Below are positions 1-43,527 of a stretch of DNA of 44,081 nt, piece after piece. Position 1 is the first letter of the stretch; each line of letters starts with the position of its first letter. Location of the stretch: UHGV virus genome UHGV-0083269; one strand, 5' to 3'. Below the pieces are notes generated by a model. It did not search any database. It had not been told where the DNA came from and was given only the letters and a program-made list of their open reading frames with translations. The translations under genes were made by a program, and so were the position numbers. Source of the DNA: a virus.

Positions 1-55
1 TTACTGGAAGCATCCATTTGTATCTTCTCATATGCTCAGTCCTTCAAATCTTAAT

Positions 56-274
56 TTAAACATATTCAAACTCATCCAGCTCCACATCTTTATCACATGC
101 TGGGCAAGTGCAGAAAGCACCATCCAGCCACGATTCTGTATTGTAATCAGCATCCTGAAACAGTATTTCAACATACTGCTTACAGTGTGGGCACTGGAAC
201 CGGATATAAGCTGGCTTGCTTATTATCATATAACGTGTACCCATGTAATCACCCCACATCTTAATTTTTTTCAT
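56..274 (-). CDS. small zinc-ribbon protein (CPHC...CPAC), early-region ORF
   Basis: 72-aa ORF with two CxxC pairs. The junction cassette lies upstream, at the 261..527 ORF boundary. Confidence 0.45.
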   Translation of the reverse strand: MKKIKMWGDYMGTRYMIISKPAYIRFQCPHCKQYVEILFQDADYNTESWLDGAFCTCPACDKDVELDEFEYV

Positions 275-527
275 TATCTATTCTTTTAAAACGAAATTCT
301 TGCTTTACATCTGGGTATTTTTCAGAATCTACTTTTGATATAAACATATCTAATGGTCTGACCCAAACCTGCGATGGATCTGAGAAATTTTTATAAACAA
401 CCATAATCTCTTCTGTTTCGCTGTTTACAGCTAGATCAGTTACTATATATGTGGCACCTTTGAAATGCTTATATCTATAACCGATCATTCCATTTTTCAT
501 GCAATTAACATGCTCTTGAATATTCAT
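261..527 (-). CDS. hypothetical early protein
   Basis: 88-aa ORF. It is packed tightly with its neighbours and preceded by the junction motif at 539-553. Confidence 0.4.
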   Translation of the reverse strand: MNIQEHVNCMKNGMIGYRYKHFKGATYIVTDLAVNSETEEIMVVYKNFSDPSQVWVRPLDMFISKVDSEKYPDVKQEFRFKRIDNEKN

Positions 528-548
528 TTACTGCCTCACAATCTTAAT

Positions 549-794
549 TTACACATTTACACCGTGCTCTTTCAAAGCCTGTGTCCAAGTTTCTTTTATC
601 TCCTTCGGGCAATGCGCCATAGCATCTGACCATGTAGGCCAACGCCCGTGCTGATCATAGAATTTATACTGATATGCAAGGCTATCCCGATTGTGCGGCT
701 GCTCCGGGTCATGCTTTACTGCACATTCCGGACAAGTTCCCTCCGGTGTTTTACCAAGCAGTGCCATTCCATATATTTTTTTCAAATATCCCAT
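549..794 (-). CDS. hypothetical early protein (Cys/His-containing)
   Basis: 81-aa ORF. Its stop codon lies inside the conserved TAAATTAAGATTG cassette. Confidence 0.4.
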   Translation of the reverse strand: MGYLKKIYGMALLGKTPEGTCPECAVKHDPEQPHNRDSLAYQYKFYDQHGRWPTWSDAMAHCPKEIKETWTQALKEHGVNV

Positions 795-816
795 ATCTCT
801 TCTTTCTCCTAAGATT

Positions 817-1092
817 TTAAAACTCAGTTACTCCATCCGGGCCTTCCAGATCTGCAGTATTGTCTTCGTACTCGCACCTGGAGATGAGGGTTATATTTTC
901 CACCGGGACCTTGCAGGTTTTCGCAAATCCAGCCTTCCACTCTTCTGCCATCACCGGAAGATTCACGCTTCCTAAATTTTCTGTGTCAAAATCAAACGCC
1001 ACCATCGCATAACCTGTGCTTTCCGGTCCACCGTATAAGTCAGCCCCTACGATCTCGTAATACAAACTTAATGTTACTTGTACTGTATTCAT
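817..1092 (-). CDS. hypothetical early protein
   Basis: 91-aa ORF with start at 1092. A GGGAGAG RBS sits in the cassette at 1093-1113. Confidence 0.4.
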   Translation of the reverse strand: MNTVQVTLSLYYEIVGADLYGGPESTGYAMVAFDFDTENLGSVNLPVMAEEWKAGFAKTCKVPVENITLISRCEYEDNTADLEGPDGVTEF

Positions 1093-1113
1093 CTTCGCTC
1101 TCCCAATCTTAAT

Positions 1114-1378
1114 TTACCTTCCTTGTGTTTCCACAACATTCAATATTTTTTCAACTGCCTTTTCCCAAAAATACCGGGCAAAATCTTCAACTGTACAAAC
1201 AACATCTTCGTCTAAATCTATAACGGTCGCATCATCGCATTGGCAGCTATGACAACCATTTTCTTGCAGAACTTCATCCGCTATTTCTCGGACAGTTTCT
1301 GCTGTTCCGCTGAATTCGCACCCCAACGAACAAAACTCTCTTAGTTCTTCCATATCCTTTTTTGATAATTTTGCCACT
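1114..1378 (-). CDS. Cys-rich hypothetical protein (probable GTG start)
   Basis: ORF track gives 1114..1395. A GGAGGGAG RBS is followed about 8 nt later by GTG near 1378. Cys-rich motifs: CSLGCEF, CHSCQC. Confidence 0.4.
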
Positions 1379-1404
1379 ATTATTTCTCCCTCCAAATTCT
1401 TAAT

Positions 1405-1608
1405 TTACCGATGATACCAGATCATCTTACCGTCTGCCATTTTTAATTCCACTTTGTCCGGATAATTGATGCTTTCCTTGGATGCGTGAAATCTCATGTC
1501 ATGAATTTCTAGTGCAGACTTATGGTTACTTTCGCACTGCTTACACTCATTTTTGTCTTTATACTGCGTACCACAATGGTCACATACATACAATTGTAAA
1601 CTTTTCAT
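1405..1608 (-). CDS. small zinc-finger protein (CDHC...CKQC)
   Basis: 67-aa ORF with two CxxC pairs. Its stop lies in a cassette copy at 1391-1407. Confidence 0.45.
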   Translation of the reverse strand: MKSLQLYVCDHCGTQYKDKNECKQCESNHKSALEIHDMRFHASKESINYPDKVELKMADGKMIWYHR

Positions 1609-1646
1609 CTTTTACGTTCTAAAATCTCCTTCTGGAATCTTAACTT

Positions 1647-1946
1647 TCAGTTTTCTCCAGCAAATCTCGGAACAAAAAAACCAAAATCAATTGCTGGAAA
1701 ACCATTCTTTCTGTTTATGTTGTTTCTAATTCCGTAAAAATCGTGCATAAAGTTGAAATCATCCGCATTCAGCCAAACATCCAAACGAAGGTGAAACTTT
1801 TTATCTGCGCTTTCAATATCCATCATACGTTCTGTAGCTTCCGTCTCTTTCATCAAGCCCATGACAGTGGCTCTTCCCATAATAGCAGCATACGTTAAAT
1901 GTCTCTTGCGTTCTACTTCTTTGTTAAAACTCGTAATCTTACTCAT
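1647..1946 (-). CDS. hypothetical early protein
   Basis: 99-aa ORF. A cassette (TAAATTAAGATTTGGAGGAAATGTGA ATG) lies upstream at 1950-1975. Confidence 0.4.
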   Translation of the reverse strand: MSKITSFNKEVERKRHLTYAAIMGRATVMGLMKETEATERMMDIESADKKFHLRLDVWLNADDFNFMHDFYGIRNNINRKNGFPAIDFGFFVPRFAGEN

Positions 1947-1961
1947 TCACATTTCCTCCAA

Positions 1962-2120
1962 ATCTTAATTTACCGCCATATAAATAAATGGCAAAAACAG
2001 AAACCACATAATATCATCTACTGTCCTCAGCTGGATTTCGCCGTACAGTAACAGCTCTAATCCCATCCATACCAGGGCCAGCACTATCCAAATATATACT
2101 GCCTTTAATGTCCTATCCAT
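1962..2120 (-). CDS. small hydrophobic (2-TM) protein, not in ORF track
   Basis: About 52-aa ORF, MDRTLKAVYIWIVLALVWMGLELLLYG... Its ATG overlaps the stop of 2113..2379 (ATGGATAG), suggesting translational coupling. Its stop falls in the cassette. Confidence 0.3.
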
Positions 2121-2379
2121 TGACCTGTCCTTTCTTGGCTGACATCATGCTCTTATTCGCCGGATTTTCCAGTTCAATCTGTATACCCTGCTTCTGCGGC
2201 TCTTTTACTCCTGTCATGCATTCTCTGATGTATCTATGCGGCACATCACATCCCACCGCATTCATGGCTATTTCATACTGCGCAGCCTGTTTCATCAGTT
2301 TATAAAAATCTGAAAACTTCACCTGCACTCTATCCTCTGCGCCAAACGTATCTGCTAATCCCATTTCATTTTCCTCCAT
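2113..2379 (-). CDS. hypothetical protein
   Basis: 88-aa ORF in the minus-strand operon. Confidence 0.4.
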   Translation of the reverse strand: MEENEMGLADTFGAEDRVQVKFSDFYKLMKQAAQYEIAMNAVGCDVPHRYIRECMTGVKEPQKQGIQIELENPANKSMMSAKKGQVNG

Positions 2380-2458
2380 ATTTCAGTTTGTGACATCACT
2401 GATAATCCCCCGCAGTTTCCTGCATTCCACTGTTGTTATTGTGTTTTCTTCCATCTCT

Positions 2459-3196
2459 CTATCCCTCCATGCTTAAATAACACATTATTCCGCAATCTGG
2501 AAATATCTCTGTATTCATATTCCCGCGTGTAGGCTCTAGCTCGTCAAGGTATACCGGGTGGCCTTTGCTGTCTTTCAATATTGCATAGCCCACCTGCCGC
2601 TCCAATCTGGCCCGACTCTCAAAAACCTCTGGGAAGTCCTTGCGAATCCGGTTCCAATAACCCATTCCTCCTTTGACGCACCCGAGGCAGTTATTATTTG
2701 GATACCCCATGTCATACATAACTGGCCGCCTAAAAGAAAAGGTCCTTTCAAATAGTCCGTGAACCTCTTCTTTCGATAATCCACGGTCAATCAACGGAAA
2801 CTCATGAGCTGCCTGTGAGTTAGCCTCTATGGTTCGCTCTGCCCGCCATTTCTCTTTCAGGTCAAATCCCCAGACATAGGTCAGATCATAATCTTTATGA
2901 GCTAACTCCCATTCTTTACGAACACGCTTTTTAAGCCAGTTTGTGCAGGGAGCAAAACCATTCATAGCACGAAAACCACCAAAAGCTCTGACACAATCAT
3001 CAACACTGCTGTATTCCTCAGATCTCAAAATCTGTATCTTCTGTCCGATTGCAGCTTCACAATCCCGTATAAATCGTATGCTGTCTGGATGCTGATCTTT
3101 GATATCTATATAAATCCATTCGTCAACATCTCCTGCCAGGTATCCAGCCATAAAACTGCTTACTCCTGCACTGATCCAACACACTTTTTTCGTCAT
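2459..3196 (-). CDS. PAPS-reductase-like (PP-loop ATP pyrophosphatase family) protein, phage type
   Basis: 245 aa. N-terminal CWISAGVSS PP-loop-like motif and C-terminal NCLGCVKGG, an architecture typical of phage PAPS-reductase-family (DndC/IbrA-like) proteins. Confidence 0.65.
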   Translation of the reverse strand: MTKKVCWISAGVSSFMAGYLAGDVDEWIYIDIKDQHPDSIRFIRDCEAAIGQKIQILRSEEYSSVDDCVRAFGGFRAMNGFAPCTNWLKKRVRKEWELAHKDYDLTYVWGFDLKEKWRAERTIEANSQAAHEFPLIDRGLSKEEVHGLFERTFSFRRPVMYDMGYPNNNCLGCVKGGMGYWNRIRKDFPEVFESRARLERQVGYAILKDSKGHPVYLDELEPTRGNMNTEIFPDCGIMCYLSMEG

Positions 3197-3371
3197 AACA
3201 CCACGCTACAAATGCTGTATCGTGGATCACCATTCGTTTGCTCTTATGCGACCTGTGCCGTTTCCAACACAAGCCTTATAGCCACGGTGTTGAATTTTTC
3301 GGTACGCCACCGTCATTCACTGCGCACCAACCCGGTTTACCGGGCATTCGTTATTCCTTTCTTTTAGTTAT

Positions 3372-3600
3372 AAATTTCATATTGCTCCTTAAATCTGTAC
3401 CATTTCCCGAACATCTCTCAGCGTTTTCGGTGTAGACTGCGCATAATACATACTTGTCACTGCCGGGCTTGCATGTCCTAGAATCTCTTGGATGATACCG
3501 ATATCAACCTTTCTGTTTTTTTAATTCATTCCAAGCGTTTTCCTCATTTTATGAGGATATACCGCGCTTTTCACATCCGCTCTCTTTCCAATATCTTAAT
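3372..3600 (-). pseudogene. truncated duplicate of the 3' end of tyrosine recombinase 41183..42316 plus downstream junction
   Basis: About 95% identical to 41162-41402. It translates to ...VDIGIIQEILGHASPAVTSMYYAQSTPKTLRDVREMVQI*, the recombinase C-terminus including the catalytic Tyr region. It has no N-terminal part and a 1-nt T-run difference. Confidence 0.6.
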
Positions 3601-3699
3601 AAAAGTCATCTGCATCGTCCAGAAAGTCCTCATAGACCTCGCATCCCTCGCAGGTCCGCTCGTTGCATTCCGTAATGTAGTTGCAATACGGGCACCTCA
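3597..3699 (-). CDS. micro zinc-ribbon ORF (about 33 aa), not in ORF track
   Basis: MRCPYCNYITECNERTCEGCEVYEDFLDDADDFY*. A cassette (TTAAGATTGGAGGATGCT ATG) lies upstream at 3700-3720. Confidence 0.3.
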
Positions 3700-3714
3700 T
3701 AGCATCCTCCAATC

Positions 3715-4011
3715 TTAAAATGAATACTTAACCCACATATACATTGTGCTCCCATCAATAGGATAGTAGTATGTGCCATCTCCGCAATCTTCCCCTCTCA
3801 TGGTTTGGTCACAATATTCTCCGTCAAGCTGTTCTTCCCCTTCTGCCAGCTGAGCCGTTCCGAATCCATCAACATAAAAATCTTCATAGCCGTTTTCATT
3901 CGCCCACTCTTCCAGTTCTTCGAAAAGTGTATTGGCCTCGTTCATCAATTTTTCATAGCGTGCCGCCTTTTTAGCCAATTCTATTGGTACAGTCATCCTT
4001 TCATCCTCCAA
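3715..4011 (-). CDS. acidic hypothetical protein
   Basis: 98-aa ORF. A cassette lies upstream at 4003-4020. Confidence 0.4.
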   Translation of the reverse strand: MEDERMTVPIELAKKAARYEKLMNEANTLFEELEEWANENGYEDFYVDGFGTAQLAEGEEQLDGEYCDQTMRGEDCGDGTYYYPIDGSTMYMWVKYSF

Positions 4012-4014
4012 ATC

Positions 4015-4554
4015 TTAATTTCTTATCTCTTGTCTCGATAATCCCTCTCCTCCTGTATTTAATCTCTTAAAAAGCTCATATCTCATTTTAAATTCACTTT
4101 CTTTAAGAATGATTTCTACTCTACATGGTGTACGCTTAATTTGCAATTTATATTCCAATGGTAAAGTATCAATAGTAATATCTTTCAACCCCTTAAGCAT
4201 ACTTCCCTCTACTAATTTCAAGCCATTTTTAGGGTAAGGATTTCCCTCTTCATCTTTTAATTCATTAAAAAAAGATAACACCGTCGATACTCTTTGCAGT
4301 CCATCAATCAGTTCCCATTTTCCATCTGGATTTGTAGCCACAAAAATAGACGGAAAAGGAATCCCTAATAATATTGATTCTATAAAATCTGACTGTCTTT
4401 GTTCATCCCATCGAAAAGCTCTTTGATATTCTGGAGAAATAATTATTTCTTTATCTCTATACATATTAATTATCTCTCCAAAAGACATATCCATCCTCTC
4501 TGATTTTATTTCTTGCCGATATTTTTGAATCTCTGCACTAATATCCATAATCAT
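4015..4554 (-). CDS. DUF262 / ParB-Srx-fold (DGQQR-motif family) protein
   Basis: 179 aa with ...ELIDGLQRVSTV... matching the (I/V)DGQQR signature of DUF262/GmrSD-N/DndB-like domains. AT-rich. It sits 37 nt downstream of the Dcm gene on the same strand. Confidence 0.55.
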   Translation of the reverse strand: MIMDISAEIQKYRQEIKSERMDMSFGEIINMYRDKEIIISPEYQRAFRWDEQRQSDFIESILLGIPFPSIFVATNPDGKWELIDGLQRVSTVLSFFNELKDEEGNPYPKNGLKLVEGSMLKGLKDITIDTLPLEYKLQIKRTPCRVEIILKESEFKMRYELFKRLNTGGEGLSRQEIRN

Positions 4555-4590: not shown

Positions 4591-5976
4591 TTATTCATTG
4601 TTAAATATCACAGATAATGTCTTCTCCATATCTACCACCAGATTAACAACCAATGCATTTCCCATCATAAATCTACGTTTTCTTAATGGCATCTTCACAG
4701 TCTCTCCTTTAACCAAACAATACTTTGTATGGTCTGTAGGAAATCCCTGGATTCGTTCTGCTTCTGCTGCAGTAAGTAATCTCACTCTTCCAGTCATCTT
4801 ATCTTTCACAATATGAGTTGTTCTACTGAATCCACCCTCAGATGTCAGCATTGTACGTGCCGGTTTATCTTCCTGATCGATCATAGGAATAGCACCTTCT
4901 GAGAATACATATTCATGACCTGTCGAACTTGTACGCAACAATTTTTTTGCACCTTTCAGGTACTGCCAGGTCTGTCTATCTTCCTTTGAAAGACACTGAT
5001 CCGTTTCATCGCTATGTGTGACTGTTGGATCTGTATAATATAATTTTTCTTCCGGAATAAAATACTGCTCTTCTACTTGTCCAGTTTCCATAACATCGCC
5101 AAGCGTAATCTGCTTTCCATGATAATCGGGAACGGTCTTCATTGTATATATTATTCCATCTTTCATTATTCCGGAATTTTCAAATGCACATTGAAATGTT
5201 TCGGAGACTTCACCTACTTCTACCGGCAGTTTCTTAATTTTCATCTTAGCAGACTCTGCTTTATTTACTGGAAATGTTTCTGCAAAAAAGCCTTCTTTTA
5301 AGATTACATTTTCCATACATTCTTTCTTATATTCTTCTTCCAATGCATCTGTATATCCAATTGTATTTAAAACTCTATCCGCATATTTTGTATTATTTTT
5401 ATAGGCAAAAATAAATGTTCTACGACGTCTCTGCTGATACCCATATTCCGCAGCATTTATCACACGCCATTCCACTGTATATCCTTCATCTCGAAAACAT
5501 GCAAGAATCACACCAAAATCTCTACCTCTTTGTTTTGCAGGAGATTTTAACAATCTATCAACATTTTCTAATAATACGAATGGTGGTTTCTTTGCTTCTA
5601 AGGTCTCACGTATTGACCACCATAAAATTCCTTTTTTTCCCTCGAGTCCTTTGGAAGTAGCTAATGAAGAAGCTACAGAATAGTCCTGACACGGGAATCC
5701 ACCAACAAGCAAATTAAAGTCAGGAAGTGTTGTCTTATCCACATCTTCAATATTATAATTCGTGGTATCATCACCATTATTATCTAATCGTGTTCCAAAT
5801 CGATATACATAACAATCATGTGCGTACTGTGTATTTTTCTCTGCTGGCTCCCACTGACTAAACCAAACGGTATCCCATTTTTCTTCTTTTCCATAATCTT
5901 CTGCTGTTCTTATATTATTAAGCCCACATCTAAAGCCACCTACTCCGGCGAACAATTCGCAAACTGTTTTCTTCAC
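4591..5976 (-). CDS. dcm: DNA (cytosine-5)-methyltransferase
   Basis: 461 aa. Motif I FAGVGGF, motif IV GFPCQDYS, motif VI ENV, C-terminal GNALVV. AT-rich, moron-like. Confidence 0.9.
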   Translation of the reverse strand: MKKTVCELFAGVGGFRCGLNNIRTAEDYGKEEKWDTVWFSQWEPAEKNTQYAHDCYVYRFGTRLDNNGDDTTNYNIEDVDKTTLPDFNLLVGGFPCQDYSVASSLATSKGLEGKKGILWWSIRETLEAKKPPFVLLENVDRLLKSPAKQRGRDFGVILACFRDEGYTVEWRVINAAEYGYQQRRRRTFIFAYKNNTKYADRVLNTIGYTDALEEEYKKECMENVILKEGFFAETFPVNKAESAKMKIKKLPVEVGEVSETFQCAFENSGIMKDGIIYTMKTVPDYHGKQITLGDVMETGQVEEQYFIPEEKLYYTDPTVTHSDETDQCLSKEDRQTWQYLKGAKKLLRTSSTGHEYVFSEGAIPMIDQEDKPARTMLTSEGGFSRTTHIVKDKMTGRVRLLTAAEAERIQGFPTDHTKYCLVKGETVKMPLRKRRFMMGNALVVNLVVDMEKTLSVIFNNE

Positions 5977-6896: not shown

Positions 6897-7493
6897 TCAT
6901 TGTGACTTATCATTATCCATCCACTCTTTTACTTTATCCTGCATTATGCTGTTATAGTCTGTATCGCGCTGATCGTAGTTAAAAAATGCATTCTGTTTTT
7001 TAGGCTGGCTTTTCCCAGCCTTTGCCGATTTATCTTGCTCTCTCGCAAACCAGCTGTTCAGAAAACGTGGTGCACCTTTCCGTGTTTTTCGGCGTGTAGG
7101 GTTCGAATCACACCACCCGATGATCTTGTTAAGCTCTTGCCTACAATCAACACCCGGGTACAGCTTTTGCATCTTATCAAGCGCAGTTTCTGTTACTTCG
7201 TATAATGTCCCATCATTAAGCTTAAATGCTCCAACTACAGGCCCATTTTCTTCTTCCGAAATATCTTCTGCTGGTCGCCCGCCTTTTGATCCATTGACCT
7301 TTCGCTTGATATTGGCATCAATTTGTGGTTTGGCCATCTCGTATATGGACATATACAGCTCTCCAGTGTCTTCTGGTTCTTCTCCTTCCAGCCCATAATC
7401 AATGATGGACCATAGCGCTTTAAGCTGTTGATTTTCTGGTAGCCGCTTGATAGCCTTTGCAAAACTGCTGTAAAAAATTAAGCTATCTCTCAT
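6897..7493 (-). CDS. putative replication-associated protein (DnaD/replisome-organizer C-terminal-like)
   Basis: 198 aa. ...KIIGWCDSNPTRRKTRKGAPRFLNSWFAREQ resembles conserved phage replication-protein C-termini. Weak call. Confidence 0.3.
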   Translation of the reverse strand: MRDSLIFYSSFAKAIKRLPENQQLKALWSIIDYGLEGEEPEDTGELYMSIYEMAKPQIDANIKRKVNGSKGGRPAEDISEEENGPVVGAFKLNDGTLYEVTETALDKMQKLYPGVDCRQELNKIIGWCDSNPTRRKTRKGAPRFLNSWFAREQDKSAKAGKSQPKKQNAFFNYDQRDTDYNSIMQDKVKEWMDNDKSQ

Positions 7494-7818
7494 TTCTCCC
7501 AGCCTCCCACTCCCGGTAAATTTTTATCCAGTCGGAAAGCCGCATGGTTACCAACCATTCGCAGCGATCCCGCCTGTGGAATACCGCCGGGAGGAGTCCG
7601 GGAAGCGCATCATGCACTGCCTGTGCTACCGCATCCAGAAGATTGAGTTTCTCAACCCTCTTGCACTCAACGTGGATACCTGGAAGCCCAATCACATCAG
7701 CATTACCTGCTGCGCCGCAGTATTGCTGCCCTCTTCTGGCATCGTATCCGTACTCCCGGAACACTCCGGCGAGCTCCCTTTCTCCGCGTTTTCCCTTTTC
7801 TCTCTGTGTCTTACCCAT
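7483..7818 (-). CDS. putative Holliday-junction resolvase (Hjc-like PD-(D/E)xK)
   Basis: ERELAGVFREYGYDARRG...GNADVIGLPGIHVECKRV matches the Hjc pattern (ERxL..., D, ExK). The likely start is MGKTQ rather than the upstream extension. Confidence 0.45.
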   Translation of the reverse strand: MGKTQREKGKRGERELAGVFREYGYDARRGQQYCGAAGNADVIGLPGIHVECKRVEKLNLLDAVAQAVHDALPGLLPAVFHRRDRCEWLVTMRLSDWIKIYREWEAGRNER

Positions 7819-8215
7819 CACAACAACCTCCAAACAATGATAGCTGCTCATATTTCTCTTTATCAGGTGGCTTCATGTTCCTCGCGAAACGCTTAGCACC
7901 TCTTTCTGCCGTCTTTATGCTTCTGCATCTTCTATCCTGTGTCTCAATCCATCGGACCGCTTCACGCCGTCCCTGTGCATCTGTACGTGGGATATAATAG
8001 CCCAGTCCGTTATCTGCTGTGAGAATTGGGCGATCATACCGCAGTATCTCAATCGCTTTCCGTACCGCTCTGTCTGGTAATCCAGTTACCCGGCATAATT
8101 CCCTACGGTTTGTGGCGTTTTCCTTACCTACGCCAATCGCATTATATACAGTTTCTGTTGCAGCAGATGTTAATCTAAAATCCATAGCTTTCCTTTCTAC
8201 TTGCCTAGATATCAT
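7811..8215 (-). CDS. winged-HTH domain protein
   Basis: 134 aa. ELCRVTGLPDRAVRKAIEILR is HTH-like. Confidence 0.35.
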   Translation of the reverse strand: MISRQVERKAMDFRLTSAATETVYNAIGVGKENATNRRELCRVTGLPDRAVRKAIEILRYDRPILTADNGLGYYIPRTDAQGRREAVRWIETQDRRCRSIKTAERGAKRFARNMKPPDKEKYEQLSLFGGCCDG

Positions 8216-8499
8216 AAATATGATTCGCCAAACTCCCGGCGAAAGTCTTCCCGACTCCCGTAGTGAGTCTCATAATACCGCTGAGCCTTGCGCTTCAGGC
8301 TCTCATCAAACCTCTGATCCATGTGGACACTGTACGGCGTCATATTGTGCCAATCCGGACGGAGCGGCACCAGAAACCCATACTTCTCCGACAGCTTCCG
8401 ATTTGCTCCGTTAAAGACGTGATGGATAGCCACGTTGCTTGATCTGGTGATGATGCAATGCTCCAGATCATCTGTTAAAGTGCTATACAGTCTTTTCAT
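8212..8499 (-). CDS. putative HNH-like nuclease
   Basis: 95 aa. ...IHHVFNGANRKLSEKYGFLVPLRPDWHN is a His/Asn-spaced HNH-like motif. Confidence 0.35.
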   Translation of the reverse strand: MKRLYSTLTDDLEHCIITRSSNVAIHHVFNGANRKLSEKYGFLVPLRPDWHNMTPYSVHMDQRFDESLKRKAQRYYETHYGSREDFRREFGESYL

Positions 8500-8513
8500 G
8501 TTTTACTTAGCTC

Positions 8514-9104
8514 CTAATTCGTTTTGTTGAGACCAACAAAACGTTTGTGGTTCTGTTCATATAGCTGCTTCATCCGCTCCAATTCTTCCGGTGTGGCTGT
8601 TTCTATCCCAGCCGCCTTGCATTCGCTTATCAGACCATCCAATAGGTGTGACATTTCTGCGCTGTCGTAATTGCTGGATCCTTTGAGCAACACATAAGTT
8701 CTATAGCTTACGCCATCACTTCCGGCAACAACCTGTGATGTGGGTTTTAAATGAAATGTCTCTCTTTCAATCACATCATTTTCTGCTTCCTCTGTGTCAG
8801 GTATCCGCACATAGTATCGAGAACCGTCAAACAACTCTACCTGTCCATATCCTCTAAGCATAAGGTTATGCGCTCTTGGCTTTGAGATATGTGCTGCCTC
8901 TGCCAGCTTAGACAGCAATACCCAGTAATAAGAATTGCTGTCAAGGCTGCGCTTGTCTCTCCACTGCTTTGCAGTCAACCTAAGGGTTTTATCCCGCATG
9001 CCATCAATCTGGCCTGATATATCGTCTTCAGCTTCGAAAGTTACACGGAGTTTTCCCGTTGCCCAGTCTCGCGTTACATCAGTTAATGTGCATTTACACT
9101 CCAT
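8514..9104 (-). CDS. hypothetical protein of recombination module
   Basis: 196-aa ORF immediately downstream of the ERF gene. No family recognised. Confidence 0.35.
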   Translation of the reverse strand: MECKCTLTDVTRDWATGKLRVTFEAEDDISGQIDGMRDKTLRLTAKQWRDKRSLDSNSYYWVLLSKLAEAAHISKPRAHNLMLRGYGQVELFDGSRYYVRIPDTEEAENDVIERETFHLKPTSQVVAGSDGVSYRTYVLLKGSSNYDSAEMSHLLDGLISECKAAGIETATPEELERMKQLYEQNHKRFVGLNKTN

Positions 9105-9112
9105 AAGCTACC

Positions 9113-9742
9113 TCACTTCCGCGTAAGACCCTCATCTGCCTTGTCTGGCTTTTTATTAAGTATTTCCATTGCTTTTTTCCAATCCTCAAGTCTAAGATCA
9201 TGCACGTCAGTCACATTGTATGTCTGCAATATTCCTTTAAGGCCTACCCCAGTTCGTTGAAGCTCGGCAAATAATTCATTTACGTACCCCGCTTCAAGCA
9301 CTGGCTTACTCGGCAGCGGTGTTTCTGCATCTGGGTCTTTCATTTCTTCTGTCGGGATGCAAAAAACCTGGAAGCACGCATATTTAAATGCTATTGACAT
9401 TGCTTTGTTGGTCGCTTTGTCGCCGCTGTCCATTCCTTCACCGATCACCGTTGCAGAAACGGAAGATCCATCTTCTGCATAAAAAGTATATTTCACAGTG
9501 CAGATGGAGTAGATCAGATTTCCGCCCTTTGCCGTGAGACGTTCTTCACGTCTCTGTTCCAAAATCTCCGGCACAACAAATAATTTGTGTTTTATCAGCG
9601 CCGGATTGATCGCATTCATGACAGCATCAATACCGCGATACATGAATCGTTGCTGTTCATTTCGGCTATCCTTTCCAACCGCTCCGATTTCAGCCATGAC
9701 GGCAGTTATCGTCTCATAAATATTTTTCTTCTTCTCATCCAT
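9113..9742 (-). CDS. erf: ERF-family single-strand annealing protein
   Basis: 209 aa. ...NEQQRFMYRGIDAVMNAINPALIKHKL matches the ERF conserved block. Its position after Gp157 is typical. Confidence 0.6.
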   Translation of the reverse strand: MDEKKKNIYETITAVMAEIGAVGKDSRNEQQRFMYRGIDAVMNAINPALIKHKLFVVPEILEQRREERLTAKGGNLIYSICTVKYTFYAEDGSSVSATVIGEGMDSGDKATNKAMSIAFKYACFQVFCIPTEEMKDPDAETPLPSKPVLEAGYVNELFAELQRTGVGLKGILQTYNVTDVHDLRLEDWKKAMEILNKKPDKADEGLTRK

Positions 9743-9750
9743 ACTCTCAC

Positions 9751-10242
9751 CTACTTAATCTGGAGATTCTGCCTTGCAACCAGCCGTGCCCCTTTGACTT
9801 CTGTGCCACTTTTCAAGAGCTTCTTAAGTGCTGTCTTATCCACTACCGGATCAGCAATCTTGATACAGGATTGCGGCAAGGCGTTGACATCACCAGCAAA
9901 TTCAACAGCTTCTGACTTTCTCCATGATGCTGATACACGCTCCGTCTGGAACTTCTGTCCATTCAGCACCCCGCTGACATATTCTTTAAGGCTTTCGGCT
10001 TTCGCTTCCGCTCTTGATTGTCGATCTGCAAAGGCCATTTTTTCTTTTTTCAGTGCCTCTGCATCCGACTGCAAATTTTTAATCCATAAAAGGATATTTT
10101 CTATTTTCTCATTAAGATCGCACTGTAAGCTATCAATGGCCGCATACGCTTCTGTATCAACAATCTCTCCTGTCTCTGGATCTAAGGCATTTTCAAACGC
10201 ATTCATAATTTCCGCGTTGATCTGGTATAAATTCACGTTCAC
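9751..10242 (-). CDS. Siphovirus Gp157-family protein
   Basis: 163-aa coiled-coil protein directly upstream of ERF, resembling S. thermophilus phage Sfi Gp157-family proteins. Confidence 0.5.
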   Translation of the reverse strand: MNVNLYQINAEIMNAFENALDPETGEIVDTEAYAAIDSLQCDLNEKIENILLWIKNLQSDAEALKKEKMAFADRQSRAEAKAESLKEYVSGVLNGQKFQTERVSASWRKSEAVEFAGDVNALPQSCIKIADPVVDKTALKKLLKSGTEVKGARLVARQNLQIK

Positions 10243-12385: not shown

Positions 12386-12799
12386 TGTATCACCTCCTTA
12401 TAGTGCTTTTTAGTTGTGTTTGCCTTGCGTTTGTGATATGCTATATATGCCTTTTGGCAAGGAAAGGAGCTGGTGTCTATTGACCAAACTTTTGTCTTTG
12501 CCTGCTCTCTCTGCATTTAATCCGCCCACACTGAAACCTCGACAGCCTAAACAGGTCAAAGGCGGCGCTGAATGTTTTGCCAGCGATTAGGCATATTGCA
12601 GAACCAAAACTGCGAAAGTGGCAAAGTGCTTCAAGAAGCATTTGGCACCATCATATGCGGCTCATGCCTGCAAAGTACATAGGGTAAACAAATTTGGAAA
12701 AGAACTGTTCAGAATGGTGCTCTGGGCAGTTTCTTTTTGCAGTTTTGCGTCAAAAATTGCATTCCTGACAAAAAACTTTATGCAAAAGTACAATTATAC

Positions 12800-31902: not shown

Positions 31903-31978
31903 ATCATCCTCCTGGCCGTGTTTATTGACCTGCCGCCGCAGGTAATGGATTAAGCCCGATAGACCACGGGCGGGGTAA

Positions 31979-32050
31979 CTCCGGCAGCCGGATTCGAACC
32001 AGCGCTATGAGAGTCAAAGTCTCATGCCTTAACCGCTTGGCAATGCCGAA
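31979..32050 (-). tRNA. tRNA-Gln (UUG)
   Basis: D-arm GCCAAGCGGTTAAGGCA as in bacterial tRNA-Gln. Anticodon loop CTTTGAC. T-arm GCTGG-TTCGAAT-CCGGC. 7-bp acceptor pairing. Confidence 0.6.
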
Positions 32051-32122
32051 AGCTGATAGCCGGACTTGAACCGACAACATATTGATTACAAGTCAATTGT
32101 TCTTCCATTGAACTATACCAGC
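32051..32122 (-). tRNA. tRNA-Thr (UGU), tentative identity
   Basis: Cloverleaf fold: acceptor GCTGGTA/TATCAGC, D-stem GTTC/GAAC, anticodon loop CTTGTAA, T-loop TTCAAGT. Confidence 0.5.
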
Positions 32123-32126
32123 AAAA

Positions 32127-32200
32127 TGGACCGCCAGGGACTTGAACCCCGGACCACCCGGTTATGAGCCGGGCGCTCTGACCAGCTGAGCTAGCGGTCC
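32127..32200 (-). tRNA. tRNA-Met/Ile2 (CAU)
   Basis: GGACCGC...GCGGTCCA acceptor, D-loop TAGCTCAGCTGGTCAGAGCG, anticodon loop CTCATAA, T-arm GGGGTTCAAGTCCC. Confidence 0.7.
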
Positions 32201-32233: not shown

Positions 32234-32527
32234 TACAAGGGGAAAAGAAAAACTCTGCTTATAGCAGCGGAATCCTCGCTGCGGTCGTAAGCCGCATTAA
32301 CAGCCTATCAGCTACGAGGTGAAAGGAGGAAATTCAAGGCCAGTCAAAGCACTTGAATTTTGATCTGGCAAGCGCACGCCGGAAATTTCATCCGCTTTTC
32401 AACCTCCAGGAATGGCCTGTTTATATTAAGGACGTGCGCGGGAGGTGTGTGATAAAACCATGAAAAGTAACCAATCCTCTTCACATCTACATTCTACCAT
32501 TTATCTATAAGTACCTTGTCCACACAT

Positions 32528-37494: not shown

Positions 37495-38922
37495 CTACTC
37501 CTCTTCAAATAGTCCTTTTTCTTTCGGTTGTGCTTCTTCCACCATTGCTTTTGCGTCCTCTTCTGTCATACCCTCAAATTTGACAAAATACATCCATGCC
37601 GGGACTTTTCCTTGTGCCACATACTGCCACCATCTGCCACGGTCAGCTTCGCGATCATAAAGGATATCCCCAAAGTCGTAGATGACATCATACGTCCCTA
37701 CAGGTGATAGGCCGTACAGATCCGCGTACACATTAAGGGCATATACAGTATCATCAAGACACGCTTCCAGTTGATCACGCACATCCTTGATAAACTGGAC
37801 AGTGCGCTGCTGGTCGGCTTCTACACCTGTTGCCGTCTGGATTCCGGAAGACTCATTAAAAACAAAGTACCCGTTTGCGAATCCGGCCTTGTATCCTATC
37901 TGACTTAACAAATGATTGATTCCCTTGATTCTGACATCTGTGTTAAGCTGTGGGTTGATTTCCTGATAAAATTCTTTCTGATCATTGCCAAACACGTTTT
38001 TTACATAATGTGGCAATCCCTTTGCATCAGCCGGGCCGCGGTGTTTTATACTCTTTCCGCTTTCGTAAAGCAGACGATCATCGGCCAGAATAATTTTTTG
38101 ACTGTCAAATATCTCTCCCGCATTCCGGCTGTATGCTATGTCAAGGTCTTTCAGTTCTTCCACGGCTTCGCGGAATATCGGAAGCCCCAGTGGGGACGAT
38201 ATATCTACGTTGTTTGCCTGCGGCGTGCGGAAGATACCGAACATTGGCTTGTCCAGTGGCTCCCCGGATGCCTTAAGAATCGGCGGTGTGTCCTCCAACA
38301 TATCGGCCCATTTGGTTTGCGTAAGCGGTATCGGGTCTCCCAGACTTTCCTCCGACTTAGAAACGTACGCTCGGTTGCTTACATAGTAAGGATAGATCGT
38401 CACACCATCCTGCACCGTCTCAACAAATCTGTGATATTCCAGACGGGTGTACCATTTCTTCCCGGACTGGTACGAATCCTTGAAGATAATGCCGCGCACA
38501 GCAAGATTGTCGTAATCAACAAGCAGCACGTCCGCCGGGGTAAATGCATCCAGGCTTGTGCCGTTTGGCTTTAAAAACACCGTACCATATGCACAGCCGT
38601 ACTCCACCCAGTCTCGAAGCTTTGGATAAACTAAATCTATCTGCTGCTGTAGCCATTCCGCCCGGTCACTGCCTTCCAGGTGTATACCAATTCCAAGAGT
38701 TACTAGGCGGGCTGTCTCAGAGCAAAGAGCCTTTGCAAAATTGATAGTCTTAATACCCTCATCATCGTCCAACCACTCCGGCTGACCGTGGTATATCTTC
38801 GCACACTGATCTATAGCTTTTTCCATCTCTGGAGATACGATGGATTCCACATCAAAGTCGTTCTCTGCCTGCCGTTTAAAAATCATGTTAAACCACCTTT
38901 TTATCGTTGATAATATTCCCAC
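37495..38922 (-). CDS. portal protein (SPP1 gp6-like)
   Basis: 475 aa, directly downstream of terminase. Typical size and position. Confidence 0.8.
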   Translation of the reverse strand: MGILSTIKRWFNMIFKRQAENDFDVESIVSPEMEKAIDQCAKIYHGQPEWLDDDEGIKTINFAKALCSETARLVTLGIGIHLEGSDRAEWLQQQIDLVYPKLRDWVEYGCAYGTVFLKPNGTSLDAFTPADVLLVDYDNLAVRGIIFKDSYQSGKKWYTRLEYHRFVETVQDGVTIYPYYVSNRAYVSKSEESLGDPIPLTQTKWADMLEDTPPILKASGEPLDKPMFGIFRTPQANNVDISSPLGLPIFREAVEELKDLDIAYSRNAGEIFDSQKIILADDRLLYESGKSIKHRGPADAKGLPHYVKNVFGNDQKEFYQEINPQLNTDVRIKGINHLLSQIGYKAGFANGYFVFNESSGIQTATGVEADQQRTVQFIKDVRDQLEACLDDTVYALNVYADLYGLSPVGTYDVIYDFGDILYDREADRGRWWQYVAQGKVPAWMYFVKFEGMTEEDAKAMVEEAQPKEKGLFEEE

Positions 38923-40550
38923 TATGCACTATTCCCCCGTCTCTCCCACAGCGATTCCGTAGCGTAACGGGTCGCATCAATGAGATGGTTATTTTTGTCT
39001 GGATATCCGCTTATGACGTTGCCGTCCTTATCCCGCTCGTACTCATACTCTTTAAATTCGTTGCAAGCGTTAGGCGTTCTGTTCGGGTCCATGACAAATT
39101 TTTTCCCTTGTAACCACTTCATTGAGTACTCAATGCTGCCAGGTCCTTTATGTGCTGCTCTGGCTGGTAGCCCTGAATCTCTGTAATCCTCAACAGATTT
39201 TGGCTCTGCACTATCGCATGTTATAACATAGTCATCATATTTGCGCCGTTTGATTTCGGCGGCTGTCCAGCTGTTCTTTTTCTTGTTTTCATAAATCTCG
39301 TCTATGAAATATATGGTTTCGCGCGCCGAATCGTAATATATCCTTACAAAAGCATATTTATCTGGGTACCATCCCCAGTCAACACCTTGATATATGCGAT
39401 CCATGATTTTGATTTCTTCATCTGTGATAGTGCGCTCTTCGATAAATTCGAAGACGTTGCCGCCGTTTCCGTTCGCTTCACCCATATACTCATTTTCATA
39501 TGCGCTTGGATTGACCTCTTTTAGATGTTCTGCATCGTTAAGAAATTCCTCTCCCAGCCAGTCATCAGGGACATCTTTGTATGTGCTTCGCATAACAACG
39601 GCGCTCGCGTTTTTAAACTCTGCCTCTACAGTATACTTATTGGCCCAGTTGATCTTGCTTCTCGGTGGGTTAAATGATTTAAACTTATATGCTTTGTCGC
39701 CGCCACGTATAGCAGACTGCTGGATACTTCTAACTTCTTCCGGTCCGGCAAACTGGTCTAATTCCTCGAACCACACAATACCGATATATCCGAACTTCGG
39801 CTTAATTGATTTTATTTTAATCGGATCATCCGCGCCTCGGAAATAGATTTTCTGTCCGGTTGGCTTATACGTAATCTCAAAAGGCGATTGTTTGAATTTA
39901 AACTCTGCATCAATGCCAAGCTTTGAGATCGCCCATTGTAGCTGCGCATATACAGAATCTTTTATGGTGTTTCCGACTTTTCGCAGCACAAGCGCATGCA
40001 TATCAGGATGTTTTTTTATCAGCTCCGGGATAATACATGATATGCAAGACGATTTCGAGGATCCTCGCCCGCCTGGAAGCACATACTCCGTATGCATGCC
40101 GCGCCGGATGTCGCGAATCATCGGGTGGAATACATCCGCCACCACATCAAGATCGATGTGATATTCTTTTGCCGTTCTGGCTTCCTCTTCTGCCTTCTGC
40201 TGTGCTTCTTTTTCCTCTTTTACGGCTATAGCTTTCTCCAAATCGGACATGGCCTTTAGCTGTTCGGAAAAAGCCGGAGCGAAGCCAAAAGAATCCTTTA
40301 CTTCCCCCCGTGCGATCATGGCGCGGCGCTTCTGGATATCAGCAAGGGACATGGTGTCAGTACCGTTGCGCCTATCAAGTTCTGCCTGTTTGTCCGCTAT
40401 ATAGGCCAAAACATCAGCATTCTTCAACAGTCTGCATCCTTCCTGTTCTGGCTTCTTATATCCAGCTTTTCTCGCCGCATCAGTTGCATTCCCGCCGTTT
40501 TCTATGAAATTTTTCGCGAACGCTTCCCGCTTCGGCGTAAGCTCGGCCAT
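38922..40550 (-). CDS. terL: terminase large subunit with fused N-terminal small-subunit (Terminase_2-like) domain
   Basis: N-terminal LTPKREAFAKNFIENGGNATDAARKAGYKKPEQEGCRLLKNADVLAYI matches the TerS Terminase_2 motif. Then Walker-A-like VLPGGRGSSKSS and a PBSX-type TerL nuclease region. 542 aa. Confidence 0.8.
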   Translation of the reverse strand: MAELTPKREAFAKNFIENGGNATDAARKAGYKKPEQEGCRLLKNADVLAYIADKQAELDRRNGTDTMSLADIQKRRAMIARGEVKDSFGFAPAFSEQLKAMSDLEKAIAVKEEKEAQQKAEEEARTAKEYHIDLDVVADVFHPMIRDIRRGMHTEYVLPGGRGSSKSSCISCIIPELIKKHPDMHALVLRKVGNTIKDSVYAQLQWAISKLGIDAEFKFKQSPFEITYKPTGQKIYFRGADDPIKIKSIKPKFGYIGIVWFEELDQFAGPEEVRSIQQSAIRGGDKAYKFKSFNPPRSKINWANKYTVEAEFKNASAVVMRSTYKDVPDDWLGEEFLNDAEHLKEVNPSAYENEYMGEANGNGGNVFEFIEERTITDEEIKIMDRIYQGVDWGWYPDKYAFVRIYYDSARETIYFIDEIYENKKKNSWTAAEIKRRKYDDYVITCDSAEPKSVEDYRDSGLPARAAHKGPGSIEYSMKWLQGKKFVMDPNRTPNACNEFKEYEYERDKDGNVISGYPDKNNHLIDATRYATESLWERRGNSA

Positions 40551-40826: not shown

Positions 40827-40960
40827 ACTATCACCCTATTTTCATTTTATTTCAATTAAAATAAAGGTGTATCACCGCTTTGTGATGATACACCTTGTTG
40901 GTTACCATTATATTCTTATACGCTCTCCTCATTATTGTCCTGCCAGGAGCATGCAGAATT

Positions 40961-41143
40961 TCAGTTTAATTGAGAATCTACTTTCTCATAATTTACAAAT
41001 TCAGTTTCGTAATTTGGTTTATGAAGAGTTAAATCCATTATGTCAATGCAATTATAACAAGGTGCTTCAACAGTCATCTTTCCCTTATGCTTGCAAGTTC
41101 CACAAGGCGTATAATCCTTTCCATCTTTCAAAAAACCTTTCAT
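40961..41143 (-). CDS. small zinc-ribbon protein (CGTC...CYNC)
   Basis: Likely start MKGF after the cassette TTAAGATTTGGAGGAGGATTA ATG. Confidence 0.4.
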   Translation of the reverse strand: MKGFLKDGKDYTPCGTCKHKGKMTVEAPCYNCIDIMDLTLHKPNYETEFVNYEKVDSQLN

Positions 41144-41182
41144 TAATCCTCCTCCAAATCTTAAATTCATTAAATCGGCTCC

Positions 41183-42316
41183 TTAAATCTGTACCATTTC
41201 TCGGACATTTCTTAACGTCTCCGGTGTAGACTGCGCATAATACATGCTTGTTACTGCTGGGCTTGCATGTCCTAAAATCTCTTGGATGATACCGATATCA
41301 ACCTTTCTGTTTTTTAAATTCATTCCAAGCGTTTTCCTCATTTTATGAGGATATACCGCGCTTTTCACATCCGCTCTCTTTCCAATATCTTTAATTATGA
41401 CTCTTAAACCGCATACGCTCATTTTATTGTATGGTGCCCTGGTCTGTGGAAACATGTACGGGCTGCTGTCCGTTCTGCTTTCAAGATATTCATTGTAATA
41501 GTGCCTTGCATCATCATCAAGGTATAATGTGCGGTATCTGCCGCCCTTCTCCCCTTTGATGAGTATATCTCCCGTTTCTGTATTGATCTGGTCGATTCTG
41601 ATCTCTGAGATTTCTCCAACCCGCGCTCCGGTGCTGCGGAATACCTCAATGATCGCACGCTCTCTTTTTGTGCGGCAAGCGTCACGCATCTGGATAATCT
41701 CCGACCGGCTAAAGTAATCAATTGGCTTTAGCGCAATCTTTTTCGCTTCCGTTGCTTCCACAGGATTTTCATCAATGAGTTTTGATTTTCGCATCCATGT
41801 GTAAAAAGCCGAAAGGAATCGGCGCTCGTTATTGTATGTGCTGTCCTGTACCTTTTCACTTTTTGTTCCTGGGCGTTTCTCGTACTGTGCCAAATACCAC
41901 TCCACATCAAATGTATCTACACTGTCCAACGACTTCCCCATCATGTCAGATAACCTTTTTACAGATCGGATATATCCGCTGATTGTCGCAGGACTGAGCC
42001 CGCGCTTTTTGATCTTGAAAAGTTCCAGTAAATAGCGGTTTCTTTTTTCTACATCTGTTTTCCACTCCGCTGGAAGAGATGTGATTTCCTGCACATTTAC
42101 CTTTGTAAGCTCACTCGATACTACACTATCCAGGATTGCAAGTGTGTCCGAATCAGAAATGTAAATCGACATTGCAACAATGATGTTATCAACGATTTCT
42201 CTTTTGATATTCTGGCCCATAGTAATCCTCCCTCTTGCAGAATCTGCAAAGGTCTGATACAATGGACCTAAGCAGATCAGGTAAGTGGCGGTAACATCTT
42301 GGCGGGTGTCCACCAC
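41183..42316 (-). CDS. second tyrosine recombinase (XerC/D-like or phage-integrase family)
   Basis: ARVGEISEIR (Arg), HKMRKTLGMNL (HxxR), LGHASPAVTSMYYAQ (His...Tyr). Confidence 0.85.
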   Translation of the reverse strand: MVDTRQDVTATYLICLGPLYQTFADSARGRITMGQNIKREIVDNIIVAMSIYISDSDTLAILDSVVSSELTKVNVQEITSLPAEWKTDVEKRNRYLLELFKIKKRGLSPATISGYIRSVKRLSDMMGKSLDSVDTFDVEWYLAQYEKRPGTKSEKVQDSTYNNERRFLSAFYTWMRKSKLIDENPVEATEAKKIALKPIDYFSRSEIIQMRDACRTKRERAIIEVFRSTGARVGEISEIRIDQINTETGDILIKGEKGGRYRTLYLDDDARHYYNEYLESRTDSSPYMFPQTRAPYNKMSVCGLRVIIKDIGKRADVKSAVYPHKMRKTLGMNLKNRKVDIGIIQEILGHASPAVTSMYYAQSTPETLRNVREMVQI

Positions 42317-42972: not shown

Positions 42973-43022
42973 ATGGCTGTATCTCCGCTAAATTTCAGTT
43001 TTACTGCATAACGTTATTAATT

Positions 43023-43196: not shown

Positions 43197-43240
43197 ATCA
43201 CTACCTCCCTTTCCGTATGCTTATTAAATTTTGGGTTATT

Positions 43241-43527
43241 TCAGTTTTCCATATCAAGCTCTTCGCAAATTTCCTCGTAATACCTCTTTTCATCCGCAAA
43301 ATGGTCGTACACCATTTCCTCTACCATCATTTTGGCATCATGCTCACACATTTCCTTGCCGGTCAGCAAGTCCCAGTATGTATCGAGCACATTCGATGTT
43401 GTAAACCAATCTCCCTCTGAATCTCTAAACAACGCCACTATGACTTTGGGATCATCTCCATGATGCCCGAACACAAGCGTGTGAACCACTGCGCCGGATG
43501 GTTCTTTGCTCTCTACCCACTTTTTCA
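43241..43527 (-). CDS. hypothetical early protein (start MKKW)
   Basis: Cassette TTAAGATTTGGAGGATACT ATG. Confidence 0.4.

Follow-up and report, generated by a model that had tools for sequence, protein, structure and literature searches.

The virus genome UHGV-0083269, analyzed here over its full length of 44,081 bp (the window), carries about 12 copies of a short motif, gTAAATTAAGATTTGGAGGa, on its minus strand, the strand that also holds almost every gene. This motif probably has a dual role, in that it would serve as the standard intercistronic linker of an array of small accessory genes, joining the stop codon of one gene to the Shine-Dalgarno (SD) sequence of the next, and would also supply the short homology at which single-gene cassettes are exchanged between related phages. 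Although this is a reading of sequence comparisons, several of the features on which it is built can be observed directly. In other phages the linker stands before at least 80 unrelated protein families, the homology between relatives breaks at its edges, and in three joints the crossover is confined to the motif itself.

Recurrence of the linker in the window is far greater than its base composition would predict. The 18-mer TAAATTAAGATTTGGAGG, searched with up to three mismatches, has 8 minus-strand matches where dinucleotide shuffles give 0.06, and for the core TTAAGATT the counts are 10 on the minus strand and 13 when both strands are searched, compared with an expectation of 2.9. A looser search combined with inspection yields 12 junction copies and one hybrid, all of them on the minus strand and all within an accessory region of small genes of ~7 kb that lies between the replication/recombination module, with a DNA methyltransferase gene at that border, and the terminase gene. 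No copy precedes the ~15 replication/recombination genes with which the early operon begins (starts from 11362 down to 4554) or the ~28 structural and lysis genes, though several of the latter use GGAGG. Whether such a recurrence might follow from ribosome-binding-site composition alone was a concern raised with the original prediction, an earlier note on this DNA that described the motif as a conserved junction cassette. The 18-mer count, which exceeds the shuffle expectation by more than 100-fold, and the AT-rich prefix, which is missing from the other GGAGG-type ribosome-binding sites of the same genome, both speak against that explanation. All copies listed in that note are there, on the minus strand and no more than a few bases from their stated positions, and three others had escaped it, namely the copy at 41-58, a degenerate one at 251-268, and the hybrid at 3588-3603.

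The anatomy of the individual copies is somewhat less uniform than first proposed. A TAA stop had been ascribed to every copy. The upstream gene does end in or at the motif in 9 of the 12 junctions, of which four have TAA at +3, four have TAA at -2, and one has TGA at -4; in the remaining 3 its stop lies 19-38 nt upstream. The spacer between GGAGG and the downstream start, previously given as 5-9 nt, ranges from 5 to 11 nt.

The same anatomy is found well beyond the window. When IMG/VR is scanned for the exact 16-mer AATTAAGATTTGGAGG, the consensus of the motif, it turns up in at least 119 stretches, and of those listed, 54 hold two to five same-strand copies within a few kb. The loci listed are diverse and sort into 71 clusters (50% aligned fraction, 90% identity). 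Among the 170 unique instances in the matches listed, information content falls to background beyond ~18 nt, and the flanks are unconserved. When the window and the loci listed are taken together, a start codon opening an open reading frame (ORF) of at least 30 codons is situated 3-15 nt past GGAGG in 146 of 157 instances, with most spacers being 5-11 nt long, and 133 of these 146 starts are ATG. Of 141 instances, 66 have the upstream ORF end in a TAA at +3, and 34 more have it end at -3 to -1. With a median gap of 20 nt, a motif junction consists of little more than the motif. At least 87 unrelated protein families lie upstream of it. Where profile matches exist, they are to domains of unknown function (DUFs), methyltransferases, ASCH, JAB, and similar domains. 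For a given gene family, the motif precedes the gene nearly always or never. In the few orthologous junction pairs available, the motif is 94% identical compared with 81-83% for the flanks. Paralogy, or membership in a larger repeat, is ruled out by the random flanks and the unrelated gene families.

Distribution of the linker across genomes further indicates that it belongs to one lineage of phages. The exact 18-mer is found in 30 stretches of a set of genomes that represent 185,579 bacterial and archaeal species, against a rough chance estimate of ~17, and it is multi-copy solely in a contig of Pilosibacter fragilis CSJ-4 (four copies) and in Clostridium sp. OF03-18AA (two copies), in both cases within prophage regions. 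Because of this rarity and of the confinement of multiple copies to two prophage regions, the linker is best regarded as a phage feature. A host-wide ribosome-binding-site context is likewise ruled out by the near-chance count in the species genomes and by the restriction of multiple copies to these two Clostridia prophages. A second set of 80 loci was found by terminase homology, a choice that does not favor the motif; here 24 copies are located on the upstream side of the terminase gene and none on its downstream side, and 1 is on the opposite strand. Of the 12 loci in which TerL is at least 79% identical, 10 carry the motif, compared with only 3 of the 68 in which it is 64-75% identical; in this latter, sister clade no analogous junction word other than the SD sequence was detected. 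No deposited phage genome in INPHARED carries these cassettes, and the exact motif string has no match in the searchable literature.

Comparisons between relatives connect the linker with gene exchange. In an all-against-all comparison of the loci, 21% of alignment end-points fall within 10 nt of a motif, versus 1% of random positions. The 5' starts of the high-scoring segment pairs cluster at -3 to +2 relative to the motif and their 3' ends at +16 to +19, so that both partners carry the whole motif and differ right past it. Comparisons between partners are discontinuous in 91% of cases at motif junctions and in 45% at other same-strand junctions. At the motif junctions of the window itself, none of 55 partner comparisons is contiguous on both sides; its non-motif junctions provide 37 contiguous cases, some of them inside the accessory region. 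All 24 comparisons made at 14 motif junctions of the terminase-ascertained set show a break, compared with an average of 57% at the 104 other junctions upstream of the terminase gene (Mann-Whitney p = 2e-4, a value that ignores relatedness). A link between the motif and gene-content break-points, which the original prediction had proposed looking for in relatives, is therefore strong in pairwise junction comparisons. The same cassette can also be found with different neighbors in different phages, as illustrated by a 50-aa gene shared by L045, L098, and L108, three of the compared loci. Moreover, cassettes of the window are 92-100% identical at the amino acid level in contigs whose recombinase is only 53-68% identical, which argues for recent horizontal exchange between diverged backbones.

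Three joints locate the crossover within the motif. The first is in a Pilosibacter prophage (L142), where a homologue of the 51-aa gene of the window (90% nucleotide identity) is joined through the motif to a homologue of the 95-aa gene (98.7%). This junction combines the left side of the window junction at 1970 with the right side of that at 43549, and a three-way alignment limits the switch to ATTAAGATTTGGAGGA. The second is found at a 294-bp tandem duplication that runs across the ends of the window and whose units each start with ATTAAGATTTG. In its 5' flank the middle linker (copy B in Table 1) agrees with copy C and in its 3' part, GAAGG...ACTGAGCAT, with copy A, exactly the arrangement that unequal exchange between copies A and C would give; the duplicated 77-aa gene is single-copy in the relative L031. 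The third is the 5' edge of an orphan fragment of the tyrosine recombinase gene, which consists of TATTAAGATATTGG, a cross between the linker that ends a 34-aa ORF and a similar sequence, ATTAAAGATATTGG, within the recombinase gene. The resemblance of this internal sequence to the motif is fortuitous. In the closest relatives (L150 with 98% identity, L087, and L017) an intact recombinase gene is followed directly by a PAPS-reductase-like gene, and the fragment is therefore the scar of such an arrangement. The duplicated unit begins and ends in ATTAAGATTTG and the recombinase fragment starts at the motif hybrid, and in both cases the motif thus bounds a duplication, as the original prediction had it. 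Its suggestion that the copies act as recombination boundaries gains support both from the break-point association and from these three joints.

Table 1. Linker copies, duplications, and genes of the window referred to in the text
Feature	Position	Strand	Sequence	Remarks
Canonical copy	4005-4022	-	GAAATTAAGATTTGGAGG	TAA +3 ends GmrSD_N ORF; ATG of 93-aa gene at 3996
Variant copy	3706-3722	-	TTTTAAGATTGGAGG	Lacks one T; TAA +3 ends upstream gene; followed by 34-aa Cys-rich ORF
Hybrid copy	3588-3603	-	TATTAAGATATTGG	5' half linker, including TAA stop of 34-aa ORF; 3' half internal recombinase sequence ATTAAAGATATTGGAAAG
Canonical copy	1955-1972	-	TAAATTAAGATTTGGAGG	Between 51-aa gene and DUF6874 gene
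Divergent copy	1609-1647	-	core GTTAAGATT	Core at 1636-1643; inserted stretch with its own AAGGAG; ATG at 1608
Variant copy	1389-1407	-	TAAATTAAGAATTTGGAGG	1-nt (A) insertion; TAA -2 ends upstream gene; GTG start 11 nt past SD
Variant copy	1099-1116	-	TAAATTAAGATTGGGAGA	
Variant copy	534-551	-	TAAATTAAGATTGTGAGG	Precedes DUF1653 gene
Degenerate copy	251-268	-	AAAATTAAGATGTGGGGT	
Copy A	41-58	-	TAAATTAAGATTTGAAGG	Before first copy of duplicated 77-aa gene, which crosses window ends
Copy B	43828-43845	-	TATATTAAGATTTGAAGG	Chimera at joint of tandem duplication; 5' flank as copy C, 3' part as copy A
Copy C	43534-43551	-	TATATTAAGATTTGGAGG	Before 95-aa gene
Copy	41151-41168	-	GAATTTAAGATTTGGAGG	Between tyrosine recombinase gene and 60-aa gene
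Second junction motif	2380-2389, 40958-40967, 42992-43001, 43238-43247	-	AAACTGAAAT(T/A)T	At other gene boundaries of same array
294-bp tandem duplication	43533-44081, on into 1-39	-		Two 100% identical units, each one linker and one 77-aa gene
Orphan 3' fragment of tyrosine recombinase gene, 214 nt	3384-3597	-		94% identical to 41178-41391
XerC/D-like tyrosine recombinase, 345 aa	41183-42220	-		Inside motif array, just upstream of terminase region; separate from integrase
DUF1653 gene	261-527	-		Profile search
DUF6874 gene	1647-1946	-		Profile search
51-aa gene	1965-2120	-		Upstream of copy 1955-1972
60-aa gene	40961-41143	-		Downstream of copy 41151-41168
95-aa gene	43241-43528	-		Downstream of copy C
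DNA methyltransferase gene	4591-5976			Upstream border of motif-bearing small-gene run
Terminase gene	38922-40550			Other border of motif-bearing small-gene run
Recombination module	7483-10242	-		Profile searches; RusA-like, NinB/Orf, Erf-like, and Gam-like members
RusA-like resolvase	7483-7851	-		Profile search
NinB/Orf	8514-9104	-		Profile search
Erf-like annealing protein	9113-9742	-		Profile search
Gam-like protein	9751-10242	-		Profile search
Integrase, 426 aa	14877-16157	+		Profile search

How the linker might work at the level of RNA can be read from its two halves. The 5' half, gTAAATTAAG, offers stops in two frames, at which most incoming ORFs would terminate, and the 3' half, GGAGG, five bases on, would act as a strong SD sequence with an ATG 5-11 nt downstream. 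Each promoterless small gene of a polycistronic operon would in this way receive the same unstructured junction for stop and restart. The search of the array for other signals is in keeping with such an arrangement, as sigma70-like promoters show no excess (17, versus 13.3 ± 4.3 in shuffles) and no terminator-like site was found at any array junction, so that the array is most simply viewed as one polycistronic unit. A shared translational signal, one of the roles suggested in the original prediction, is accordingly compatible with the two-frame stops, the GGAGG, the ATG at SD distance, and the lack of anything promoter- or terminator-like in the array, and probably also applies. The further suggestion of an RNA-processing signal is unsupported, because the predicted folds of 6 junctions differ from one another (z-scores of -1.2 to +1.3) and reveal no conserved hairpin in RNA or single-stranded DNA; a search of the array against Rfam also found no family. 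Nor does "extended Shine-Dalgarno" appear to be an apt description. The 3' end of Bacillota 16S rRNA is ...CCUCCUUUCU, and pairing 5' of GGAGG would require AGAAAGGAGG in the mRNA. The motif has GAUUUGGAGG instead, in which GAUUU would face UUUCU and would not extend the pairing, so that, going by the Bacillota sequence, the ATTAAGATTT part probably lies outside the reach of the 16S tail.

At the level of DNA, the linker places 16-18 identical bases between unrelated genes, both within a genome and across phages. As it is the sole homology between otherwise unrelated neighbors, crossovers would be expected to fall inside it. Catalysis probably falls to the Erf-type annealing protein that the phage itself encodes, together with Gam, NinB/Orf, and RusA, as Rad52-like recombinases, Erf among them, are efficient on substrates with only short homology (PMC3945230). 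By such exchange, single-gene cassettes would be replaced, inserted, deleted, or duplicated in tandem and would in every case keep a working stop and ribosome-binding site, because exchange in the 3' half of the linker keeps both the upstream stop and the spacing between SD sequence and start. Cassettes that retain an intact linker could move again, and repeated exchange of this kind would keep the sequence uniform.

Several considerations weigh against the dual role of the linker. Break-points are also common at the non-motif junctions of the same region, and the pairwise break-point statistics ignore the relatedness of the contigs. Association alone cannot tell a crossover in the motif from one that falls between two genes where nothing but the motif lies. 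As the units of the tandem duplication are 100% identical and extend across the contig ends, an effect of assembly is conceivable. With its 16-18 bases, the linker reaches at best the length of homology that annealing proteins usually need to recombine efficiently. Finally, the core is conserved at least as well as the SD sequence, which a plain stop and SD role does not need, and this leaves room for a sequence-specific factor.

This last point bears on the main rival explanation, that the motif, and especially its TTAAGATT core, is a regulon tag bound by a sequence-specific protein or RNA of phage or host that co-regulates the accessory genes. Its action might be translational repression or activation, or targeted cleavage of mRNA such as that of T4 RegB at GGAG, with recombination as a by-product. 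In 125 non-ascertained variants the core positions are conserved at 0.84-0.95 compared with 0.66-0.82 for the SD positions, and in the few orthologous pairs conservation of the core is also better than that of flanking coding sequence; this may reflect either a need for uninterrupted identity in recombination or the presence of such a binding factor. The strict single orientation of the motif, its restriction to one class of genes in a single phage lineage, its stable presence or absence for each gene family, and the existence of a second, different motif in the same junction position would all suit a tag as well. Nevertheless, no protein family, whether regulator or recombinase, accompanies the motif in most loci (the best is found in 38 of 135, with the stretches partial), no conserved structure is apparent, and no reverse-orientation match to the motif with up to four mismatches occurs anywhere in the window. 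A tag would, moreover, leave by itself unexplained why homology ends exactly at the motif edges, and co-regulation of this type as the primary explanation is judged unlikely. A trans-encoded antisense RNA, considered as a separate candidate, was ruled out as the window holds no reverse-orientation copy.

A more general form of this idea is that the linker, perhaps along with the second junction motif AAACTGAAATT, is the recognition sequence of a dedicated trans-acting factor. Such a factor may be a cassette-mobilizing activity, in effect a phage counterpart of the integron with a 16-nt site, or a sequence-specific translational regulator or nuclease that switches the accessory genes, which may serve in anti-defense, on or off as one regulon. 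We consider this rather improbable, and it keeps a place in the discussion because the core is conserved beyond what a stop and SD sequence need and because the motif is sharply limited to one lineage.

At the other extreme, the motif could be an inert passenger, an ancestral 5' leader carried along with its genes, and the break-points at gene boundaries would then result from illegitimate recombination followed by selection for intact genes. Illegitimate recombination is favored for most mosaic joints in phages (PMC3029335), and the frequency of accessory-region break-points at junctions devoid of the motif is in line with it. A neutral leader would be expected to decay, however, yet the linker retains 16/16 identity before at least 80 unrelated families. 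Equally difficult to accommodate are the presence of the whole motif in both partners at a joint, the three joints that are chimeric within it, and the significantly more frequent breakage of motif junctions than of neighboring ones, and in our assessment a passive origin is quite improbable.

The presence of a second tyrosine recombinase within the array raises the question of an integron-like, site-specific system, in which this XerC/D-like enzyme would recognize the motif to excise and insert cassettes. The cassettes are indeed promoterless and unidirectional, and pairs of motifs 18 nt apart resemble empty sites. But the motif is 16-18 nt long and asymmetric and lacks the paired inverted binding sites of a tyrosine recombinase core or of attC, with no predicted hairpin; around the 170 instances among the matches listed, no inverted-repeat architecture is conserved. 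The recombinase, present in some relatives only, has a homologue in 5 of the 12 loci of the motif-bearing terminase clade and none within 10 kb in L152, a locus with four motifs, although these stretches are partial. The recombinase gene was itself cut at a fortuitous motif-like sequence, as fits homology-driven exchange, and a site-specific mechanism of this sort seems very doubtful. Least credible of all is a promoter function, in which TAAATT or TAAGAT would be the -10 element for a host or phage sigma factor and each cassette would be transcribed separately, as with the promoter-early stem-loop (PeSL) cassettes of T4-type phages: each hexamer matches TATAAT at 4/6 positions, including A2 and T6, and two copies have by chance a -35-like hexamer upstream, but neither the -35 nor the TG-extension positions are conserved in the same 170 instances, the number of promoter-like sites is that of shuffled sequence, terminators are absent between the genes, and a start site 7 nt past the -10 would hit the SD sequence and leave almost no leader.

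With an exchange linker as the preferred reading, comparison with known systems shows which of its properties have precedents. The closest functional analogue is provided by the PeSLs (Arbiol et al. 2010, PMC2839356; PMC4122927), which are also repeated signals between small ORFans of hyperplastic regions, reaching from the upstream stop to the next SD sequence and start. As was found here for the linker, insertions, deletions, and replacements between relatives end at these repeats, and shuffling by recombination between repeats has been proposed; mini-circles have been shown for PeSLs. PeSLs are, however, far longer, combine a sigma70 promoter with a terminator stem-loop, and act on transcription in lytic myoviruses of Gram-negative hosts, whereas the linker is 16-18 nt long, shows neither promoter nor stem-loop, belongs to temperate phages of Clostridia, and would act, if at all, on translation.

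In anatomy, the linker most resembles the start-associated sequences (SAS) of Cluster K mycobacteriophages (Pope et al. 2011, PMC3203893). Both are short asymmetric repeats with an SD core a few bases before mostly ATG starts, in one orientation, ahead of non-structural genes of unrelated families. SAS also include conserved positions that are unable to pair with 16S rRNA, and some copies hold the upstream stop; their function is unknown, although a role as a binding site for the co-regulation of genes has been proposed (PMC3203893). The two sequences differ, with a 13-bp SAS consensus of GGGATAGGAGCCC as opposed to AATTAAGATTTGGAGG for the linker. SAS genes mostly follow gaps of >50 bp and half have an upstream 17-bp inverted repeat, unlike the linker junction of ~20 nt with nothing conserved upstream. 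No break-point association has been reported for SAS, whereas for the linker it is the main signal.

The concept closest to the linker is that of the boundary sequences of the modular theory (Susskind and Botstein 1978; Clark et al. 2001), as these are cited in PMC3029335: short conserved stretches at gene boundaries between non-homologous flanks, with joints falling there as found here, proposed to direct homologous recombination in a way that keeps genes intact. Compared with what is cited there, the linker is distinct in that one sequence recurs at a dozen junctions of a single genome, in ~170 distinct contexts among the matches listed, and on the scale of single genes rather than modules. 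Integron cassettes and attC sites share with it the promoterless arrays in one orientation, the recurring site, and a tyrosine recombinase nearby; the imperfect inverted repeat (R''-L''...L'-R') that forms the attC hairpin is not found in the linker, its joints look homology-driven, and the tyrosine recombinase is not consistently linked to linker arrays (5 of 12 loci, with partial stretches). The stoperators of Cluster A mycobacteriophages occur throughout the genome, in both arms. As described where they are contrasted with SAS (PMC3203893), stoperators resemble the linker in being short asymmetric repeats in one orientation, often at gene ends, but they are repressor-binding DNA sites that act on transcription; the linker is confined to one region of ~7 kb and includes an SD sequence.

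The idea that short conserved linkers guide modular exchange in phages dates from 1978 (as cited in PMC3029335). Here it becomes directly testable, because joints can be read at base resolution, the phage has its own annealing module, and a prophage exists in a cultured host, with the prophage of Pilosibacter fragilis CSJ-4 offering a test case of a temperate phage of a gut anaerobe. As a tag, the motif picks out at least 80 small, mostly unknown, and often exchanged accessory genes, including those for Cys-rich proteins, DUFs, and methyltransferases, which are natural candidates for functions in host takeover or anti-defense. The linker may also be viewed as a natural frame-tolerant adaptor of stop and ribosome-binding site, with a possible use in building operons in Clostridia.

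A second junction motif, AAACTGAAAT(T/A)T, occupies other gene boundaries of the same array, with 4 copies in the window versus 0.17 expected, and in the fetched loci 90 copies lie on the gene strand and none on the other. At some of these junctions the upstream gene is ended by TGA or TAA, usually with the SD sequence next. Hybrids between the two motifs occur, for example AAACTGAAATTAAGATTTGGAGG, and the second motif may represent a second type of linker.

Several smaller features of the linker arrays can be added. In four loci (L015 at 2555-2590, L033 at 3738-3773, L067 at 2657-2692, and L115 at 2746-2781) two linkers follow each other head to tail at a distance of 18 nt (AATTAAGATTTGGAGGTCAATTAAGGTTTGGAGG) and enclose no gene; such pairs may be the footprint of cassette loss. 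The downstream start tends to share its frame with the TAA at +3, with a spacer of 5, 8, or 11 nt in 39 of 80 families compared with ~27 expected, a bias for which a chi-square estimate gives p of roughly 0.01 and which could also arise by chance or from shared ancestry of spacers. At its 3' end the duplicated 77-aa gene has a sequence, AAATCTTAAATT, that is the complement of the linker core ~45 nt downstream, so that TTAAGATT appears on the plus strand at 43595-43602 and 43889-43896; this sequence could pair with the next linker in the mRNA, a situation seen for that gene only.

The genome as a whole, which has 43% G+C, reads as that of a complete, circularly closed temperate phage, and the 294-bp duplication that runs across the window ends is the reason that it behaves as a closed circle. 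Its host is probably Pilosibacter fragilis or a close relative, and gut Clostridia are the likely host group. Genes flanked by the motif are short and for the most part have no known function, and profile searches identify among them DUF6874, DUF1653, zinc-ribbon-like proteins, and an ORF with GmrSD_N only. This 179-aa ORF (4015-4554, minus strand) matches positions 3-195 of the 199 of the GmrSD N-terminal profile, has no other Pfam domain, and terminates at the TAA within a linker copy. Either linker-mediated exchange may have truncated this gene, or the N-terminal domain may stand alone. Outside the array, a full-length match to FuFi-1 RNA (Rfam RF02986) at 12576-12735 on the plus strand scores 140.8 bits, compared with a gathering score of 59.6, and lies in the same plus-strand block as the integrase gene. 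A RAGATH-21 RNA match (RF03097, 79 bits) adjoins three phage tRNA genes, Gln-TTG, Thr-TGT, and Met-CAT (32371-32440 and 31978-32200, minus strand), between unannotated ORFs downstream of the terminase gene.

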